A DNA stretch of 64,000 nucleotides from Bacteriovoracia bacterium (lineage in GTDB: Bacteria; Bdellovibrionota; Bacteriovoracia; Bacteriovoracales; Bacteriovoracaceae). Shown piece by piece: positions 5,386 through 64,000 of the stretch. The notes below the pieces were generated by a model. The model saw nothing but the letters and a program-made list of their open reading frames with translations, had not been told where the DNA came from and searched no databases. The DNA is taken from contig JBKHVI010000001.1 in the NCBI GenBank assembly GCA_046570105.1, positions 64,001 to 128,000 of the forward strand. The letters are read 5' to 3'. Each line of letters begins with the position of its first letter. The first letter of the stretch is position 1. The translations under genes and the position numbers were made by a program.

Positions 5386-8070
5386 CTATAACCGCTTTTC
5401 TTTCAATTCGAGGGCCGACAATTCCGTCCTGGCCATCTCCCTCACGTAAAGCGGGATCTCTTGTTTCTCTGAAAGGTTCCGAAGAACCGTTTTACCTTCA
5501 TCTAGTTTACCATTTCTTAGGAGCGAGAGACCTAACAAATACTCAATCCGGGCACTGTAAGGAGATTTTAAAAATTTCTCCCTGAAGTTTTTTACTAACC
5601 CTTCGATCTCACTCCACACTGGTTTTTCATCACCTACCAACGATTCAATCAGTAGGTAGTTTACTCGTTCCGCTACATTCAAGATCGATGCCGACTTTGA
5701 TTGTTGGATATCATTGGCCAAGGCTTTTACTACTGTTTTGAAACGCTCTTGATCTTTTAAATTATAGAGACTCTCGACATAACCCATCAGAAGTTCAGAC
5801 ATCTGACGTGGGGTAAGGCGGTTTTTTGGGTCTTGTTTGAGGAGAACTCGTTCAAATTGTTCGGCGGCTAAGCTCCAGTTACTACGTTGAAAAGCGATCA
5901 ATCCACTATAGTAGGAGTAGTTTACAGAGTCCCTAAGTGACACTGGATAAGAGGCCAACTTGGCCTCGGCCTGGGCCCATTCGCGCGAAGAAACGGCCTT
6001 TATGAGACTGAGTTCCTCTACCATATCTTTCAGAGGAAGATCTTTTGTACGATCTACCCAAAGTGGATATTCACGAACTTCTTCGCCACCCATCGCTTGT
6101 AGAATTTTATATGAGCGCTCGAAACTTTGGTAAAGACCGAGCTTGATGAAGCTGTCCGCGACAACGAAATTCATATAAGGATTGCCGGCGACACGCTTTT
6201 CAAATTTATCTTTGTAGGTTTCCCACATTTTGACCGCACGTGAGTAATCTTCTTTTAAGTACGCTTGCTGTATAACGCCAAAAACGATCTCTGCTCCATC
6301 TCCATCAAAAACACGACGTTCGGTTGGGCGAAGAGTATCAAGAGGAATAGATGCGAGATAAGCAAGGGCCTTATCGTATTCACGTTGATTCACAAAAGTT
6401 CTTAAACGTACCAACCATAATAGTTTTTTATGATCAGCCGTTAAGCTCTTTTTCTCATCTGATGATTGCTCAAGGAAAACTTCCACTTCTTTGTCTTCAT
6501 CACTGAGTTGTAGTTTTCTAGCCAGGCGCATTCCTACATAACGAAGTTTAGCTTCAAAACGAACTTCAGGGTAAGGGCTACGGTCGATAGCATTTTTATA
6601 AAGTACTAATGTCTCAGCAGCTGGCTTATCTAAGAGTTCGTAAGCAAGACCCATGCGCAAACGAGCCGAAGCAGCTTCTTTTAAATGTGCCCAGTCAGAT
6701 ACGAAGAGATCAAAAACGCGAATAGCTTCGGTGTATTCCGCTTCTCTGAAGAGTGCTTCGGCAGCGTTATAAAGAATACTTGGGTGAATCGGCTTCACTA
6801 AACTCTTTTCAATTGCTTTGAATCGCTTAACTAACTCGCCACTTTTCCCAGAGCCTAGTAACGCATAAGTGGAATAAGCCATTTCTGTCTGTGGAGGCAG
6901 CATAGAAGCCAATTTTTTATCTTTTAAGAATTCCGCGATTTTGTCATCTTGTCTGAGTCTTGCAAGGGCATTCAAGATGACATTTGATGCTTGGATAACC
7001 ATGTCATGGTCATACTGTCCGCGAGCTTCAACAAAAAGTCGCTTCGCTAAATCTAAACTCTTAAAATAGTCGCCACGATCTAAATGATATTGAAGTACAT
7101 AGCGGAATGCCGCTCGCTTCATTTCATAATCAGTTGTTCTTTCTAGGAGATTGCCAACCAGATTCATCGCAGAGGCCTGCAATGTGCGATCTTTCTTAGT
7201 AATGTTCGTCTTGAAAAGTGAATTAATGCGAATCCACTCATTCATATCGTAGTTCGAATCTTGGCCGTATTTCTTCTGATAAAGTGTGAGGGATTTATTC
7301 ATCAACCCCCACTTCTGCTCACGATAGAGATTAATGGTTAACTGCATATGAGCTTCTTTAGGATCATCTAAGAGCTCACGATCTTTAATCTCATATAAAG
7401 AATCCGGAATCTTGCTCTCTAACAAAATATCACGCTCTAGGGCCGGCAAAAGAGCAGGATAGTCCCAGATAAAAGCAGCACCGTAGCGGAAGTCTCGATA
7501 CTCAGGATTTAATTTTTTGGTAGCTGCTAGTGGAACAGGCACAACTTCAATTAAAGAGTTCTTAGGTGATTTTAGAGCGAGTGGAATTGATTTCTTCGTA
7601 GCGACAGGCTTTTTTTCTTCAACCGGCAACGGAAGAGGCTTTTTAAATGATGCCGCTTTTGATGGAAGTGAGTCAGCGTTTACCCAAAAATCCATAATCC
7701 ACTTACGGTCAACATCACGATAAAAACTAAAAAGCTCAACTGAAGCATCTTTTAGTGTGACCACAACTCGTGCAGGTTTACTGGGAAAACCCTCTTGGCT
7801 GTAGGACACATTTTCAATATAGCCCTGAGCTTTTTTCATTTTGACCATCTCGCCGGCCAATTGCTCAAACAAAGGAAGATTCAATGTCTCAAGAATGACT
7901 TGATTGTCATTCTTGGAAATACTGACCTGCTCTTTCGAGACGATCAGATTCCAACGAAGATGAGTTTTGAATGTTTCTTGATTAAAAACGTCGGAATACG
8001 CCGTCGATGACCATGCGGTCAAAAGAAGAATAATCGTGAGCCATCTTGGCAGCGCGAACATCTTAGTCAT
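5386..8070 (-). CDS. Large exported TPR-repeat protein at head of flagellar operon
   Basis: Long ORF with signal peptide (..LLLTAWSSTAYS) and helical TPR-like repeats; start moved to ATG 8070. Confidence 0.75.
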   Translation of the reverse strand: MTKMFALPRWLTIILLLTAWSSTAYSDVFNQETFKTHLRWNLIVSKEQVSISKNDNQVILETLNLPLFEQLAGEMVKMKKAQGYIENVSYSQEGFPSKPARVVVTLKDASVELFSFYRDVDRKWIMDFWVNADSLPSKAASFKKPLPLPVEEKKPVATKKSIPLALKSPKNSLIEVVPVPLAATKKLNPEYRDFRYGAAFIWDYPALLPALERDILLESKIPDSLYEIKDRELLDDPKEAHMQLTINLYREQKWGLMNKSLTLYQKKYGQDSNYDMNEWIRINSLFKTNITKKDRTLQASAMNLVGNLLERTTDYEMKRAAFRYVLQYHLDRGDYFKSLDLAKRLFVEARGQYDHDMVIQASNVILNALARLRQDDKIAEFLKDKKLASMLPPQTEMAYSTYALLGSGKSGELVKRFKAIEKSLVKPIHPSILYNAAEALFREAEYTEAIRVFDLFVSDWAHLKEAASARLRMGLAYELLDKPAAETLVLYKNAIDRSPYPEVRFEAKLRYVGMRLARKLQLSDEDKEVEVFLEQSSDEKKSLTADHKKLLWLVRLRTFVNQREYDKALAYLASIPLDTLRPTERRVFDGDGAEIVFGVIQQAYLKEDYSRAVKMWETYKDKFEKRVAGNPYMNFVVADSFIKLGLYQSFERSYKILQAMGGEEVREYPLWVDRTKDLPLKDMVEELSLIKAVSSREWAQAEAKLASYPVSLRDSVNYSYYSGLIAFQRSNWSLAAEQFERVLLKQDPKNRLTPRQMSELLMGYVESLYNLKDQERFKTVVKALANDIQQSKSASILNVAERVNYLLIESLVGDEKPVWSEIEGLVKNFREKFLKSPYSARIEYLLGLSLLRNGKLDEGKTVLRNLSEKQEIPLYVREMARTELSALELKEKRL

Positions 8071-60789: not shown

Positions 60790-60978
60790 ATGATGATCCA
60801 CCATTCAATCCAACTTCTCAGAGAACTCCATGAACTCGAAAACGAGATCAAACTTTGGGAGGATCTTACTCGTCGAATGGGTCTTGAGATTGACTCAAGG
60901 GCCATTTTGCACCTCTTACTCTCCAATAAAATGAAAAATAATCACACGACTTTGACGGACACTAAGATAGTTTCCTAG
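60790..60978 (+). CDS. Small hypothetical helical protein (62 aa)
   Basis: SD AGGAGG 6 nt before ATG 60790. Confidence 0.55.
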   Translation: MMIHHSIQLLRELHELENEIKLWEDLTRRMGLEIDSRAILHLLLSNKMKNNHTTLTDTKIVS

Positions 60979-61013
60979 GATGCCATGTGTATCTATCAAT
61001 TATGGAGGACTTC

Positions 61014-61421
61014 ATGAAAGCACTTCTCGCTTCTTTGCTCCTTGTTGCTGTTGCCCTACCGGCCATGGCCCAAGTAGTGATTCGTCGCCCGATTCCAATC
61101 CCACCACACTATCCATACCCAGGTGACCCTTGGCGTGATCCTTGGCGCCAACCTATGCCACCACAAGACTTCTGCTACGGTGATCGTTTTGATCGCGTTT
61201 CCGAACTCACTCGTGAAGCAGCTATCGTTCGTCTAGACCGCTTTGAAGTAGAAAAAGCTGTTGAGTGCTCACTCACTTCTTCTGGCCTTGATACTGCTTC
61301 TGGCAAATGTTACGAAGCTAACGGCGACTTGTTCGCTCGCTTGAACATGTCATTTGTTGTGAACTGCAATACACGCAGTGGTTCTTCAAGACTCCGCAAA
61401 ACAACGATTAAGTACTACTAG
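61014..61421 (+). CDS. Secreted protein with Pro-rich N-terminus and 4 Cys
   Basis: SD GGAGG; signal peptide ending AMA; RRPIPIPPHYPYPGDPWRDPWRQP. Confidence 0.75.
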   Translation: MKALLASLLLVAVALPAMAQVVIRRPIPIPPHYPYPGDPWRDPWRQPMPPQDFCYGDRFDRVSELTREAAIVRLDRFEVEKAVECSLTSSGLDTASGKCYEANGDLFARLNMSFVVNCNTRSGSSRLRKTTIKYY

Positions 61422-61450
61422 TACAAGTCTTAATTGTTGCTCCTTGTTTC

Positions 61451-61479
61451 GGCCAAAAGGTGTCACTCACCTTTTGGCC
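61451..61479. repeat. REP-like palindrome GGCCAAAAGGTG-TCACT-CACCTTTTGGCC
   Basis: Perfect 12-bp stem; contains the RAYT stop codon; copies at 11064 and (inverted, variant) 63329. Confidence 0.85.
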
Positions 61480-62089
61480 TTTTTAATGTCTCGAACAGTT
61501 TAATTTTCTTTTTATTAATATCAAACTGCCAACGTCTCAGCCCCTTGCGAATAATCGCTTCACCTTCATTTTCAATTCTCTCATTCAGCCACAGCAACTC
61601 GGCTGCCTCTCCACCTAACTCCATATTCACTCGACTATGTAATGGAAACGGCACTCGCGAAGTGAGTGTTGAATAAGGATAGAATTCCACTCTTTCAACC
61701 ATCCGCGCACGTAATGGATTTTGGTAAATATAGCGATAGACTTGATAATAATAAGCCTGATTCTCAATCAAGCTCCATTTATAGCGTCCTCCCCACAAAT
61801 GATTTGTTCCATCAGCCTTTCTCATAATTTTCACGGCCGTATTTCGCATCAATAGATGCATCACCTGATCTAGATTACATCGCGGCGTTTGAACCAACAG
61901 ATGGAAGTGATTATCCATCAAGACAAATGCATGAATACAAATCCCAAAGCGCTCTTGAACATTTTTAAGTTCATCGACAAAAATTTTCCAAACCTCGTTC
62001 ATCTCAATCGGATAGAACTGCTTGTCATTCGTTCGAGCTGTTACGTGGTAGGTATGAATATCACTGCGAATCAAAGCATTTCTCGGCAT
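61463..62089 (-). mobile_element. REP-associated tyrosine transposase (RAYT; HUH Y1_Tnp family)
   Basis: MPR start, YHVTARTN, HAFVLMDNHFHLL (HUH), YIYQNP.RA (catalytic Tyr), YPYS; flanking palindromes; no tnpB. Confidence 0.92.
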
Positions 62090-62157
62090 AATTACTCCTT
62101 GTAACCCGTTACCTCTTGGCGCTTTTTTGCAGCACCAAGCGGTGTTAAAATTAAAAC

Positions 62158-62268
62158 GGGAAGGAGTAAGCCTGAGGGATTCCCCCCAGACCTAGGTGCT
62201 TGTGACACCAAGAGGTTCACAGAGAACGTGGAACTGACAAAACATGGAGCGTGAGCATGCCCCTTCCC
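62158..62268 (-). ncRNA. Candidate structured ncRNA, array unit 1 (111 nt)
   Basis: GGGAAG.../...CUUCCC closing stem, two internal hairpins, GYUC-repeat loop, 3' U-tract. Confidence 0.65.
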
Positions 62269-62434
62269 GCCTCTCTTGTTGCAAAAAGACGGGAAATTTT
62301 CCGAACACTAACTATTGAATTTTCAACAGGAGTCGTCTCACTGCGTGAGAGATTTTTTCCACTCACATGTCCGTTTTTTACCCGCGACTTGTTGGAGATG
62401 GATGAGACTTACTTCGAGTGATAAAATTAAAAAA

Positions 62435-62545
62435 GGGAAGAGGTAAGCCTTGAGAGATTCCTCTCAAGACCCAGGTGTGAGCACACCAAGAGGTTTAAAA
62501 AGAACATTGAACTGGCAGAGCGGTGAACTTGAGCTACCTCTTCCC
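62435..62545 (-). ncRNA. Candidate structured ncRNA, array unit 2 (111 nt)
   Basis: Same fold with compensatory changes (GGGAAGAGGU/ACCUCUUCCC; CUUGAGAG/CUCUCAAG). Confidence 0.65.
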
Positions 62546-62709
62546 GCCTCTCTTGGTGCAAAGAGACGGGAAAATTTCTACGACTCAACTATTCAAAAAA
62601 ATTCATCCATCACTTCACTGCGTGAGAGATTTTTTCCAATCACTTGTCCGATTTTTACCCGCGACTTGTTGGCGATAGATGAGAGTTCAATCAAGTGATA
62701 AAATAAAAA

Positions 62710-62820
62710 GGGAAGGAGTGGGCCTGAATTATTTAATTCAACCCCAGGGTGCTGTCACACCCAAGGGGTTCACCTGAACTTGGAGCTGGATGAACGTGGA
62801 GCGTGGACCTGCCCCTTCCC
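62710..62820 (-). ncRNA. Candidate structured ncRNA, array unit 3 (111 nt)
   Basis: Same fold with compensatory changes (UGAAUU/AAUUCA; AACCCC/GGGGUU; GGGUG/CACCC). Confidence 0.65.
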
Positions 62821-63018
62821 GCCTCTCTTGGTGCAAAGAGACGGGAAAATTTCTACGACTCAACTATTCAAAAAAATTCATCCATCACTTCACTGCGTGA
62901 GAGATTTTTTCCACTCACATGTCCGATTTTTACCCGCGACCTGTTGGAGATTGATGAGAGCTGGAAGAAAATAATTGGCACTAATTCAATAAAGAACTTT
63001 CTCGTATCTCACACACAT

Positions 63019-63061
63019 AAAAACTAAAAAGCCGAACGTAATTGATGTAACTACGTCCGGC
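63019..63061 (-). terminator. Intrinsic terminator of the candidate sRNA
   Basis: GCCGGACGUAGUU/AAUUACGUUCGGC 13-bp stem (two G-U) then UUUUUAGUUUUU. Confidence 0.75.
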
Positions 63062-63240
63062 TCTTCTATGACGTCCAATGAAGGACGCCTTTACCAAAAG
63101 GAAATTCATGGAAGAGTTAGCGCGGGTTCTGATCCTCGTTATCTTGACGATACAGCTTGCTGTATTGCTCAAGATAATTTGATCGGATTTAGAGGGAGGG
63201 GAAAGCAGCCTCTCCCTCACCGTTTTAACTTCCAATCCTC
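63022..63240 (-). ncRNA. Candidate ~215-nt structured sRNA
   Basis: TTGATT-N18-TATGCT promoter (63276-63247); several strong stems including a 3-way junction; terminator at 63031-63061 plus U-tract. Confidence 0.55.
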
Positions 63241-63280
63241 AAATTCAGCATAGCTCTATTTGAATAAGCGAATCAAACTT

Positions 63281-63313
63281 AAAAAAAAGGCCCGGGTTAA
63301 ACCCAGGCCTTTT
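63281..63313 (-). terminator. Intrinsic terminator after the OMP gene
   Basis: GGCCUGGGUU/AACCCGGGCC followed by U8. Confidence 0.85.
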
Positions 63314-63328
63314 CTACCTAAAAGTGTA

Positions 63329-63353
63329 CCTAAAAGTGCATGACACCTTTTGG
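63329..63353 (-). repeat. Variant REP-like palindrome (inverted), CCAAAAGGTG-TCATG-CACTTTTAGG
   Basis: First 13 nt identical to 61453-61465 in opposite orientation; adjacent 12-bp tandem duplication of its arm. Confidence 0.75.
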
Positions 63354-63358
63354 AAATT

Positions 63359-64000
63359 TTAGAACTTGTAAGTCATAGCGACGCGAGCGAGTAGACGGTT
63401 TGAATTCAAGATTCCGTTACTTGGTGCTGTGTTATTGGTCGCAGTAGCAGCCGAAGTCATCAGCAATCCGTCGATAGCGAAATCACCAAACTTCAAAGTA
63501 GCACCTGAACGGACAGATGTTGTATTCGCTTTGGTACGCTTCTTGTCTGGGTTCTGAGCGACAACGTTTGTGTTAACCAATGGCAATAGGTCTTCATCGT
63601 AGTCGTTGTCTTGCTCATTGATTATACTCTGAGAGATTGAACCACGAAGAGTCAGCCATGAAGCAGCGTCCACTTCTAAACCAACTACGACTGGAACAGC
63701 GTAATCATCAATCGTTGCTTTGCCGTCATCTTTGGTATCAAGCTCACGCTTGTTCAACACATAAGATACTTTATAGAACAAAGTCGCTTTGTCGTTAAGC
63801 TTAGTCTCGCGACCGTAACCCACGATAAAACGATCAGTTTGCGCATCAGCTTCACCTGTATAAGCAGGAGCTGCAGCTGTCGTTGCAACTTGAGAGACAG
63901 AACTCTCTTGTTCCCAAGCAGCGTGGCGCCAGAAAGCAAATACGCTTGCCTGATTGTCGATACGGTATGTTCCACCTAATTCGTAACCAAGCTTACCCTT
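63359..64000 (-). CDS. Outer-membrane beta-barrel protein (major OMP-like), C-terminal part; truncated by window edge
   Basis: Frame open to the edge (214 codons); amphipathic strands PVVVGLEVDAASWLTLRGS, GATLKFG; C-terminal MTYKF. Confidence 0.8.
   Translation of the reverse strand, partial: KGKLGYELGGTYRIDNQASVFAFWRHAAWEQESSVSQVATTAAAPAYTGEADAQTDRFIVGYGRETKLNDKATLFYKVSYVLNKRELDTKDDGKATIDDYAVPVVVGLEVDAASWLTLRGSISQSIINEQDNDYDEDLLPLVNTNVVAQNPDKKRTKANTTSVRSGATLKFGDFAIDGLLMTSAATATNNTAPSNGILNSNRLLARVAMTYKF

Follow-up and report, generated by a model that had tools for sequence, protein, structure and literature searches.

Does a tandem array of long repeats immediately upstream of a transposase-like gene form one system with that gene, or do the two merely keep company? 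We asked this of a 64,000-nucleotide stretch of DNA, hereafter the window, from a Bacteriovoracia bacterium of the family Bacteriovoracaceae (GCA_046570105.1, an assembly of 3.0 Mb labelled G000 here; contig JBKHVI010000001.1, positions 64,001 to 128,000). Coordinates given without a contig or locus name are window positions, and the order of elements is that of the minus strand, read from 63400 to 61440: the end of an outer-membrane-protein-like gene, a variant copy of a repetitive extragenic palindrome (REP), a terminator, a segment of ~215 nt, three units of ~276 bp, a leader hairpin, a gene for a REP-associated transposase-like protein (RAYT), and a REP within which the RAYT stop codon lies. 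An earlier note on this DNA had listed these elements, every one of which we recovered on the minus strand, and had suggested that the array might encode RNAs that act as partners, guides or regulators of the RAYT. We rate the units as a new RNA family whose arrangement with the RAYT is new as well, ancestral but dispensable.

The repeated units as structured RNA

The tandem array spans 62142-62959, with a period of 275 nt, 3.0 copies and 80% matches, and contains families of direct repeats spaced 275-278 nt apart. Each unit holds an RNA of about 155-165 nt with four helices. Covariance-model matches place unit 1 at 62692-62851, unit 2 at 62415-62576 and unit 3, the one proximal to the RAYT, at 62139-62299, all on the minus strand, and unit 3 scores 189 bits (R1) and 162 bits (R2). 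A 5' hairpin, P1, is followed by a closing helix of 9 bp, P2 (GGGAAGGGG/CCCCUUCCC), which encloses a conserved single-stranded junction of ~50 nt and two further hairpins: P4, which is short (GGUG/CACC), and P5, which has 11 bp and mostly a GAAU loop. The conserved, apparently unpaired stretch between P2 and P4 reads GCUCAYGYU...CAGUUC...GUUCAUGU..ACCYCUUGGUG, and 3' of P2 there is a U-rich tail ending in UAnCAC (AACAC at the end of unit 3). Unit 3 on its own folds with a z score of -3.1.

This structure is carried by covariation among related copies. A first alignment of 17 copies from five genomes, made with plain MAFFT and RNAalifold, gave only 12 pairs and left P1 and P2 out of register; the structure was then set by hand on five close copies and all copies were realigned by an Infernal covariance model, for a final set of 30. 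In that set, 93.7% of 906 cells are standard pairs, versus 61% in controls from the same alignment with each 3' partner shifted by one column; the alignments were fitted to the model, which favours the structure. Double-sided changes occur in 26 of the 32 pairs, including all 11 pairs of P5, and not one of 500 shuffles reached any of the five covariation measures. A set of 19 copies agrees (93.9% paired; changes on both sides in 20 of 32 pairs). The proposal that the units are covarying structured RNA is thus borne out. There are 68 G-U cells versus 9 C-A cells, and pairing stands at 93.9% on the RAYT-sense strand versus 84.0% on the opposite one; the excess of G-U over C-A means that the fold belongs to RNA of the RAYT-sense strand.

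The family does not appear to be a known one. A search of Rfam 15 with 60900-64000 at E<=1 found no match in the units (62100-63000) and returned four weak matches, all on the terminator at 63224-63377, so that this check, which the earlier note had asked of the modelled cores, also came out in favour of novelty. Conserved GGA loops of the CsrA type were not found in our own reading of the alignment, and no shared open reading frame (ORF) was found across arrays of different species. As far as listings and abstract openings show, the literature on RAYTs with small RNAs and on Bacteriovorax with noncoding RNA holds no description of such an array. With these units, a predatory lineage that has been little studied gains a well-supported family of structured RNA.

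Linkage and dissociation of the RNA and the RAYT

The gene downstream of the array (61463-62089, minus strand, 208 aa) matches Pfam Y1_Tnp (PF01797, IS200-like; E 1e-9, residues 13-123), and its sole match in the PDB is 4ER8, TnpA-REP of E. coli (E 4e-4), with HFH aligned to HMH and YIYQNP to YIYINP, that is, the HUH motif and the catalytic tyrosine. Copies of a dispersed REP family lie around it, one at its stop codon, and REP hairpins stand 5' of members of its clade. By every sequence feature that we checked, the predicted protein is a RAYT of the Y1/HUH type. The locus shares with described RAYT/REP systems, such as E. coli TnpA-REP (4ER8) and the Pseudomonas REPINs, a Y1/HUH protein with both motifs, one RAYT copy per lineage and a dispersed palindromic REP family of its own at the flanks. 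It differs from them in that multi-helix RNAs of ~160 nt stand in tandem immediately upstream of the RAYT gene, and in the small size of its REP family, whose core 13-mer CCAAAAGGTGTCA has 17 exact copies in the 3.0-Mb assembly and about 38 at <=1 mismatch, versus 2 for a reversed control. Two RAYT/REP pairs seem to be present in G000, for a second RAYT paralogue (contig C8:19499-20110), 40-42% identical, has a different palindrome at its flanks (CCAACACAC...GTGTGTTGG) and no RNA upstream.

If the RNA belonged to RAYTs in general, it would be expected beside many of them. Among 78 RAYT-homologue loci from all species genomes, the RNA lies within 3 kb of only two, one on a near-identical contig of genome G007 and the other at locus L050. 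In a careful tree of 39 RAYTs the seven that are RNA-linked form a single clade (support 99/98), and none of the 32 others has the RNA. A search of all 237 family genomes brought in 27 further loci of this clade at 48-58% identity, and in a quick FastTree all 34 RAYTs fall into one clade (support 0.92), with RNA-positive tips spread throughout, the basal branch of genus g1 included. Twelve of the 27 further loci have one to three units upstream (E<=1e-3). With filters off, two more gave weak matches of 18 bits in the expected place, 11 gave nothing, and two had too little upstream sequence. For the clade as a whole the RNA lies upstream at 19 of 32 testable loci, directly so at 17 and with an insertion of ~0.7 kb at two, and all 19 RNA-linked loci belong to this one clade. 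The two insertions, in related genomes (L204 in G224 and L213 in G205), consist of an ORF of roughly 0.7 kb between RNA unit and RAYT, which indicates that the adjacency can be broken without loss of either part. Some genomes of genus g51 have, in the place of the RNA, a shorter and different-looking hairpin-rich element (L206 1322-1461; L212 1323-1461; also 5' of the RAYT in L200). This element, which scores just 18 bits with the model, still has the tail (UUUUAUUUUAACUCA) and the REP-half motif described below, and is either a decayed or a remodelled relative.

The linkage is also kept in three different gene neighbourhoods, for which the names of flanking ORFs are our own reading except where Pfam supports them. 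In genus g1 the order is outer-membrane-protein gene, array, RAYT, orf144 and methyltransferase (G000, G007, G002, G010, G003, L173 and L178). In genus g51 (G061 and L168) a gene beginning MKLSIIGTGYVGLV, which we take to encode a UDP-glucose dehydrogenase, stands two genes from the RAYT, and at L050 the array lies behind a gene that presumably encodes a thiolase. The earlier note had asked whether similar arrays recur upstream of RAYT homologues, and they do. An RNA 5' of one RAYT clade in three different neighbourhoods points to an ancestral linkage, and the simplest history is one of ancestral adjacency between RNA and RAYT followed by repeated loss of the RNA. The note's own fallback, a small RNA (sRNA) cluster that happens to sit beside the gene, is nearer the truth than an RNA-RAYT system, except that the adjacency is ancestral and not accidental.

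Each partner nonetheless persists independently of the other. The RNA was found nowhere in any of the 15 genomes behind the non-positive loci (E<=1e-3; as a positive control, the same search mode found the RNA in three other genomes), and the RAYT frames in these 15 genomes are open. Conversely, the four RNA copies of G000 are distributed over two loci, three in the array and one on a 17-kb contig, C55, without a RAYT. Its syntenic counterpart in G007 (C111) has three tandem units, and at both the genes that follow the RNA are convergent. Two units with a gene between them lie on G127:C232, in a genome whose sole RAYT match is weak and has a stop, and a single unit on G058:C56 lies just 5' of a permease ORF, which we read as NCS2-type, while the sole RAYT match of G058 is on another contig. 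The idea of an obligate RNA-RAYT system does not withstand these RAYT-free arrays, together with the 11 of 25 testable further loci that lack the RNA and the two that have weak remnants of it; arrays independent of RAYT loci, which the earlier note had named as the observation that would speak against it, are exactly what C111 and C55 provide. An obligate guide RNA is not to be expected given this double dissociation. One RNA-linked RAYT, at L139 (G061:C4, about 5451-6063), is split by a frameshift in a stretch of eight G, with the RNA 42 nt 5' of it intact; the break in frame could reflect true inactivation or an assembly error in the homopolymer.

All these searches come with the provisos that calibration was shortened, which makes covariance-model E-values rough, and that many assemblies are fragmented metagenome-assembled genomes of 66-100% completeness, in which 'not found' does not equal 'absent'. 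Matches are confined to the Bacteriovoracaceae. The RNA occurs in 5 of the 11 genomes of the genus to which G000 belongs and in 5 of 121 genomes of the family sample, the family-wide search having covered 121 of 237 Bacteriovoracaceae genomes with strict filters and 33 more with full scoring. A pattern scan of metagenomes matched 32 stretches, of which seven were confirmed by the model and the other 25 are chance matches; three pattern matches on viral contigs yielded no confirmation by the covariance model. The known copies comprise the 30 aligned ones and 20 further covariance-model matches.

Structured RNAs beside transposase-family genes include the bridge RNA of IS110 and the omega/reRNA of IscB/TnpB, and RAYTs are, to our knowledge, HUH enzymes without a known RNA partner. 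The array resembles those systems in being a structured non-coding RNA that adjoins a co-oriented transposase-family gene, but here strict co-occurrence fails in both directions and no loop covaries with the DNA substrate. Since co-occurrence and substrate complementarity both fail, the likeness to transposase-adjacent guide RNAs is one of position only.

Expansion of the REP family is confined to G000 (38 copies) and G007 (29), with nine further g1 genomes at background, and a REP sits at the RAYT stop codon in G000, G007 and G002. RNA-negative loci of the clade have classical REP hairpins (CCAAAAGGTR-5 nt-YACCTTTTGG) 5' of the RAYT, which identifies this REP family as the cognate one of the RAYT clade. 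A motif resembling half a REP lies about 25-35 nt 3' of most RNA units (CCAAGAGGT in G000 and G007; CGAAAAGGT in L050, G061 and the G002 type; CCAAAAGGTG in L168), abuts the RAYT start codon in many clade members (CCAAAAGGTGCCAGGTTG..ATG), and is found also 3' of inner units and of the RAYT-free units on C55 and C111. Its presence behind these latter units suggests that duplications copied the RNA and the RAYT-proximal leader together, and that the RAYT-free C55/C111 locus may derive from the RAYT locus. Within the RNA, the segment ACCYCUUGGUG is constant while the REP-like motif varies (CCAAGAGG, CGAAAAGG, CCAAAAGG, CCAATTGG). We considered a pseudoknot between internal ACCYCUUGG and the downstream REP-half motif, which are complementary in G000 unit 3, and rejected it because the two do not covary across species.

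Expression and function of the array

What, then, is the array for? On balance, and with no more than modest confidence, we favour a new family of structured RNA genes in tandem copies, an ancient but dispensable neighbour of the RAYT and not its obligate guide or partner. The three units would be paralogous genes for a structured RNA, co-oriented with the RAYT. A tree of the 30 units sorts them by array position across G002, G010 and L173, first with first and last with last, and places unit 3 of G000 with the last unit of G007; the copies therefore predate the species splits and have been kept as distinct paralogues. A conserved block of ~95 nt lies 5' of every unit, first units included, and even of the first unit of G007, which follows a divergent gene. 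On the minus strand of the window, cross-locus comparison delimits these blocks at 62852-62975 for unit 1, 62577-62691 for unit 2 and 62300-62414 for unit 3, the last with a REP-half-like motif and a putative promoter or regulatory region. From its position and conservation, the ~95-nt block is a candidate promoter or regulator site, and with a block of its own each unit is probably transcribed separately. Transcription is probably stopped or attenuated by P2 together with the U-rich tail. Most likely the RNA works alone and binds a protein or ligand, as the elaborate, conserved multi-helix junction suggests a specific partner, whether protein or small molecule, rather than simple antisense pairing.

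Several known arrangements bear comparison. Bacterial sRNA genes may occur in multiple copies, as with Qrr1-5, PrrF1/2 and the RsmX copies, and the array shares with tandem sRNA genes its head-to-tail paralogues, the conserved block 5' of each and a copy number that varies between relatives. It differs from them in having no sequence or Rfam relation to them and, in our reading, no conserved GGA-loop pattern, and in a fold that is more elaborate than that of typical base-pairing sRNAs. A second comparison concerns the RAYT. In IS200, a terminator-like hairpin in the 5' region of tnpA blocks incoming transcription and a stem-loop occludes the ribosome-binding site; the array likewise places structured, terminator-like elements directly 5' of a Y1 transposase gene and might mask its ribosome-binding site, but the units are far larger, repeated, have a covarying four-helix fold and occur also at loci without the gene.

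Because either partner exists without the other, any coupling between them could only be in cis. The last unit ends 40-70 nt 5' of the RAYT start codon, and units are always co-oriented with the RAYT; as this short interval has no recognisable promoter, the RAYT is probably expressed by read-through. In G000 the interval is a leader (62090-62138, minus strand) that contains the Shine-Dalgarno (SD) sequence AAGGAG (62095-62100), the REP-half-like motif CGCCAAGAGGTAACGGGT (62104-62121) and a hairpin at 62115-62139, whose fragment folds with a z score of -3.9. In the last unit, the 3' strand of P2 is CU-rich and complements the purine-rich SD of the RAYT; if it masked the ribosome-binding site, the RAYT would be under tight, IS200-like control. 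We hold this idea loosely, as a possibility raised by modelled folds and not as a finding. Whatever the mechanism, a RAYT clade can keep an RNA gene array at its 5' side over long evolutionary time, and the locus lends itself to testing how domesticated HUH transposases come to be expressed or held in check.

A number of observations weigh against independent RNA genes, or at least against parts of that explanation. The covariation counts rest on alignments fitted to a model, and the U tract 3' of P2, on which a terminator would depend, is weak or missing in units of G002 and G003. No unit has a consensus sigma-70 promoter (62090-62975 scanned), and the 4 sites found in the region, versus 3.1 expected, all fall within the RAYT gene. 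Among sequencing runs containing the stretch, none is recorded as RNA and one as DNA/unknown, so that transcription, ends and promoters are predictions. The 3' strand of P2 pairs with the RAYT SD in only three of nine full-length folds (G000, G007 and G010). Finally, in genera g1 and g51 the RNA, when present, nearly always adjoins this RAYT clade, and a REP-half-like motif stands behind each unit; these two observations leave room for a closer functional tie. Sigma-54 and sigma-28 consensus sequences, looked for by eye, were set aside as well, owing to misfits in spacing or in the GG/GC elements.

Another explanation, which we regard as unlikely, is that each unit is a cis-regulatory leader, a riboswitch-like aptamer or attenuator in which the closing helix and U tract stop transcription, with tandem copies gating the RAYT or another downstream gene. 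The co-orientation of units with the RAYT, the short distance from the last of them to its start codon and the lack of a separate promoter in our scan would all follow from it, the conserved junction nucleotides are typical of aptamers, and the unit of G058 lies directly 5' of the permease ORF. P1 and P2 also share sequence, the 3' strand of the one running into the 5' strand of the other, and single-sequence folds switch between two states, one with an extended P1 and one with P2 formed. The 3' strand of P2 can, in addition, mask the RAYT SD. By our reading, however, the overlap is lost in G003, and the SD masking that a last-unit switch might use is confined to the minority of folds mentioned above. 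Nor is the RNA always the 5' leader of a co-directional gene, since the next gene is convergent on G000:C55, on G007:C111 and at unit 2 of G127, and the inner units of arrays retain upstream blocks of their own.

The closer tie could instead be facultative. It is conceivable, if quite unlikely, that the array is an optional RNA part of the RAYT-REP system and holds back or adjusts a domesticated HUH nuclease, either as a decoy or scaffold, by way of the REP-like P4 and the REP-half motif, or as a switch of RAYT translation in the last copy, and that it has repeatedly been lost where the RAYT was silenced or rewired otherwise. If true, this would make it the first RNA partner of a Y1/HUH enzyme.

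The partnership proposed in the earlier note goes further, in that the RNA would bind the RAYT and guide, scaffold or restrain its action on REP DNA. We find this very doubtful. The RNA is present at 19 of 32 testable loci of one clade as against 0 of 32 other RAYT loci in the first tree, the adjacency is maintained in three neighbourhoods, the REP-half-like motif follows the units, and P4 (GGUG...CACC) shares its 4 bp, in our reading, with the tip of the REP stem. But P4 covaries away from the REP sequence (GAUG/CAUC, GGUU/AACC), and ACCYCUUGGUG stays unchanged where the REP-like motif does not. The double dissociation also speaks against a partnership, with intact clade RAYTs in 15 RNA-less genomes and RNA kept at RAYT-free loci and in G127, as does the intact RNA beside the frameshifted RAYT of G061.

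It is highly improbable that the unit is a mobile DNA repeat, a non-autonomous element of the REPIN or MITE (miniature inverted-repeat transposable element) kind, or a cargo with a REP half-site, that the RAYT copies and whose apparent structure is a fold of single-stranded DNA. Copy number does vary between close relatives (three versus two units at the RAYT locus, one versus three at C55/C111), and the REP-half-like motif behind units extends to the RAYT-free locus. Yet G000 has just four copies at two loci, both syntenic in G007; synteny of the loci holds across species, and the units sort by their place in the array; the 68 G-U cells speak for a fold of RNA; a fold of four helices with a conserved junction does not resemble REP doublets; and none of the three viral-contig pattern matches was confirmed. 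That the units encode small proteins has next to no chance of being right, for although three plus-strand ORFs of 56-82 aa at 62251-63027 have the motifs PLPASL..AKRRE..SLRERFFPLTCP in common, there is no ORF >=40 aa in the arrays of G007 and G010 and none common across species, and substitutions in the helices are compensatory, not codon-patterned.

REP copies and flanking genes

The two REPs around the locus had been seen as its inverted ends. The downstream one (61451-61479) is a perfect 12+12 palindrome, GGCCAAAAGGTG-5 nt-CACCTTTTGGCC, with the TGA stop of the RAYT in its loop; the upstream one (63329-63353) is a variant copy, inverted relative to 61453-61477, with 25-nt arms that are 84% complementary and 1851 nt apart. 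Both REPs are thus present and inverted as described, but they are not the termini of an element: the upstream copy is absent from the syntenic loci of G002 and G010, and the family is expanded in G000 and G007 alone, so we regard the two as copies of a dispersed family. An exact tandem duplication of 12 bp (TACCTAAAAGTG x2) at 63315-63338, within the variant REP, lengthens one of its arms. Followed by TTTTT, the palindrome at 61451-61479 also scores on the plus strand as the intrinsic terminator of a convergent gene (60987-61421), which encodes a conserved protein of 144 aa with no Pfam match; this REP therefore doubles as the end of that gene and as the RAYT stop.

At the other side of the array, the outer-membrane-protein-like gene ends with its stop at 63359 (minus strand), its Pfam match to OMP_b-brl being weak and below the cutoff of that family, and directly 3' of it the terminator scan places its intrinsic terminator at 63283-63315 (minus strand).

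The ~215-nt segment between this terminator and the array (63026-63253) had been put forward as an sRNA candidate. The segment is there, and a terminator-like hairpin with a U run marks its 3' end (63026-63066, minus strand), but it lies opposite a conserved 24-codon hydrophobic ORF on the plus strand (MEELARVLILVILTIQLAVLLKII, 63108-63182) with an AAGGA ribosome-binding site, and the hairpin overlaps the 5' region of this small ORF. The ORF is a module of its own, outside the RNA array. Copies of the ORF occur on G000:C15, in G007 and in G010, in the last opposite in orientation to its neighbours, and they differ mainly at codon positions 1 and 3 (10/3/11). With a minus-strand terminator over the 5' region of the ORF, the layout resembles that of a type I toxin-antitoxin pair or of a small membrane protein with an antisense RNA, and might by analogy be either. 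In G007 (L041) and G003 (L042) an opposite-strand ORF of ~150 aa is inserted between the small-ORF module and the first unit; it is absent in G000, where one extra RNA unit stands, and G003 has a further GC-rich ORF upstream.

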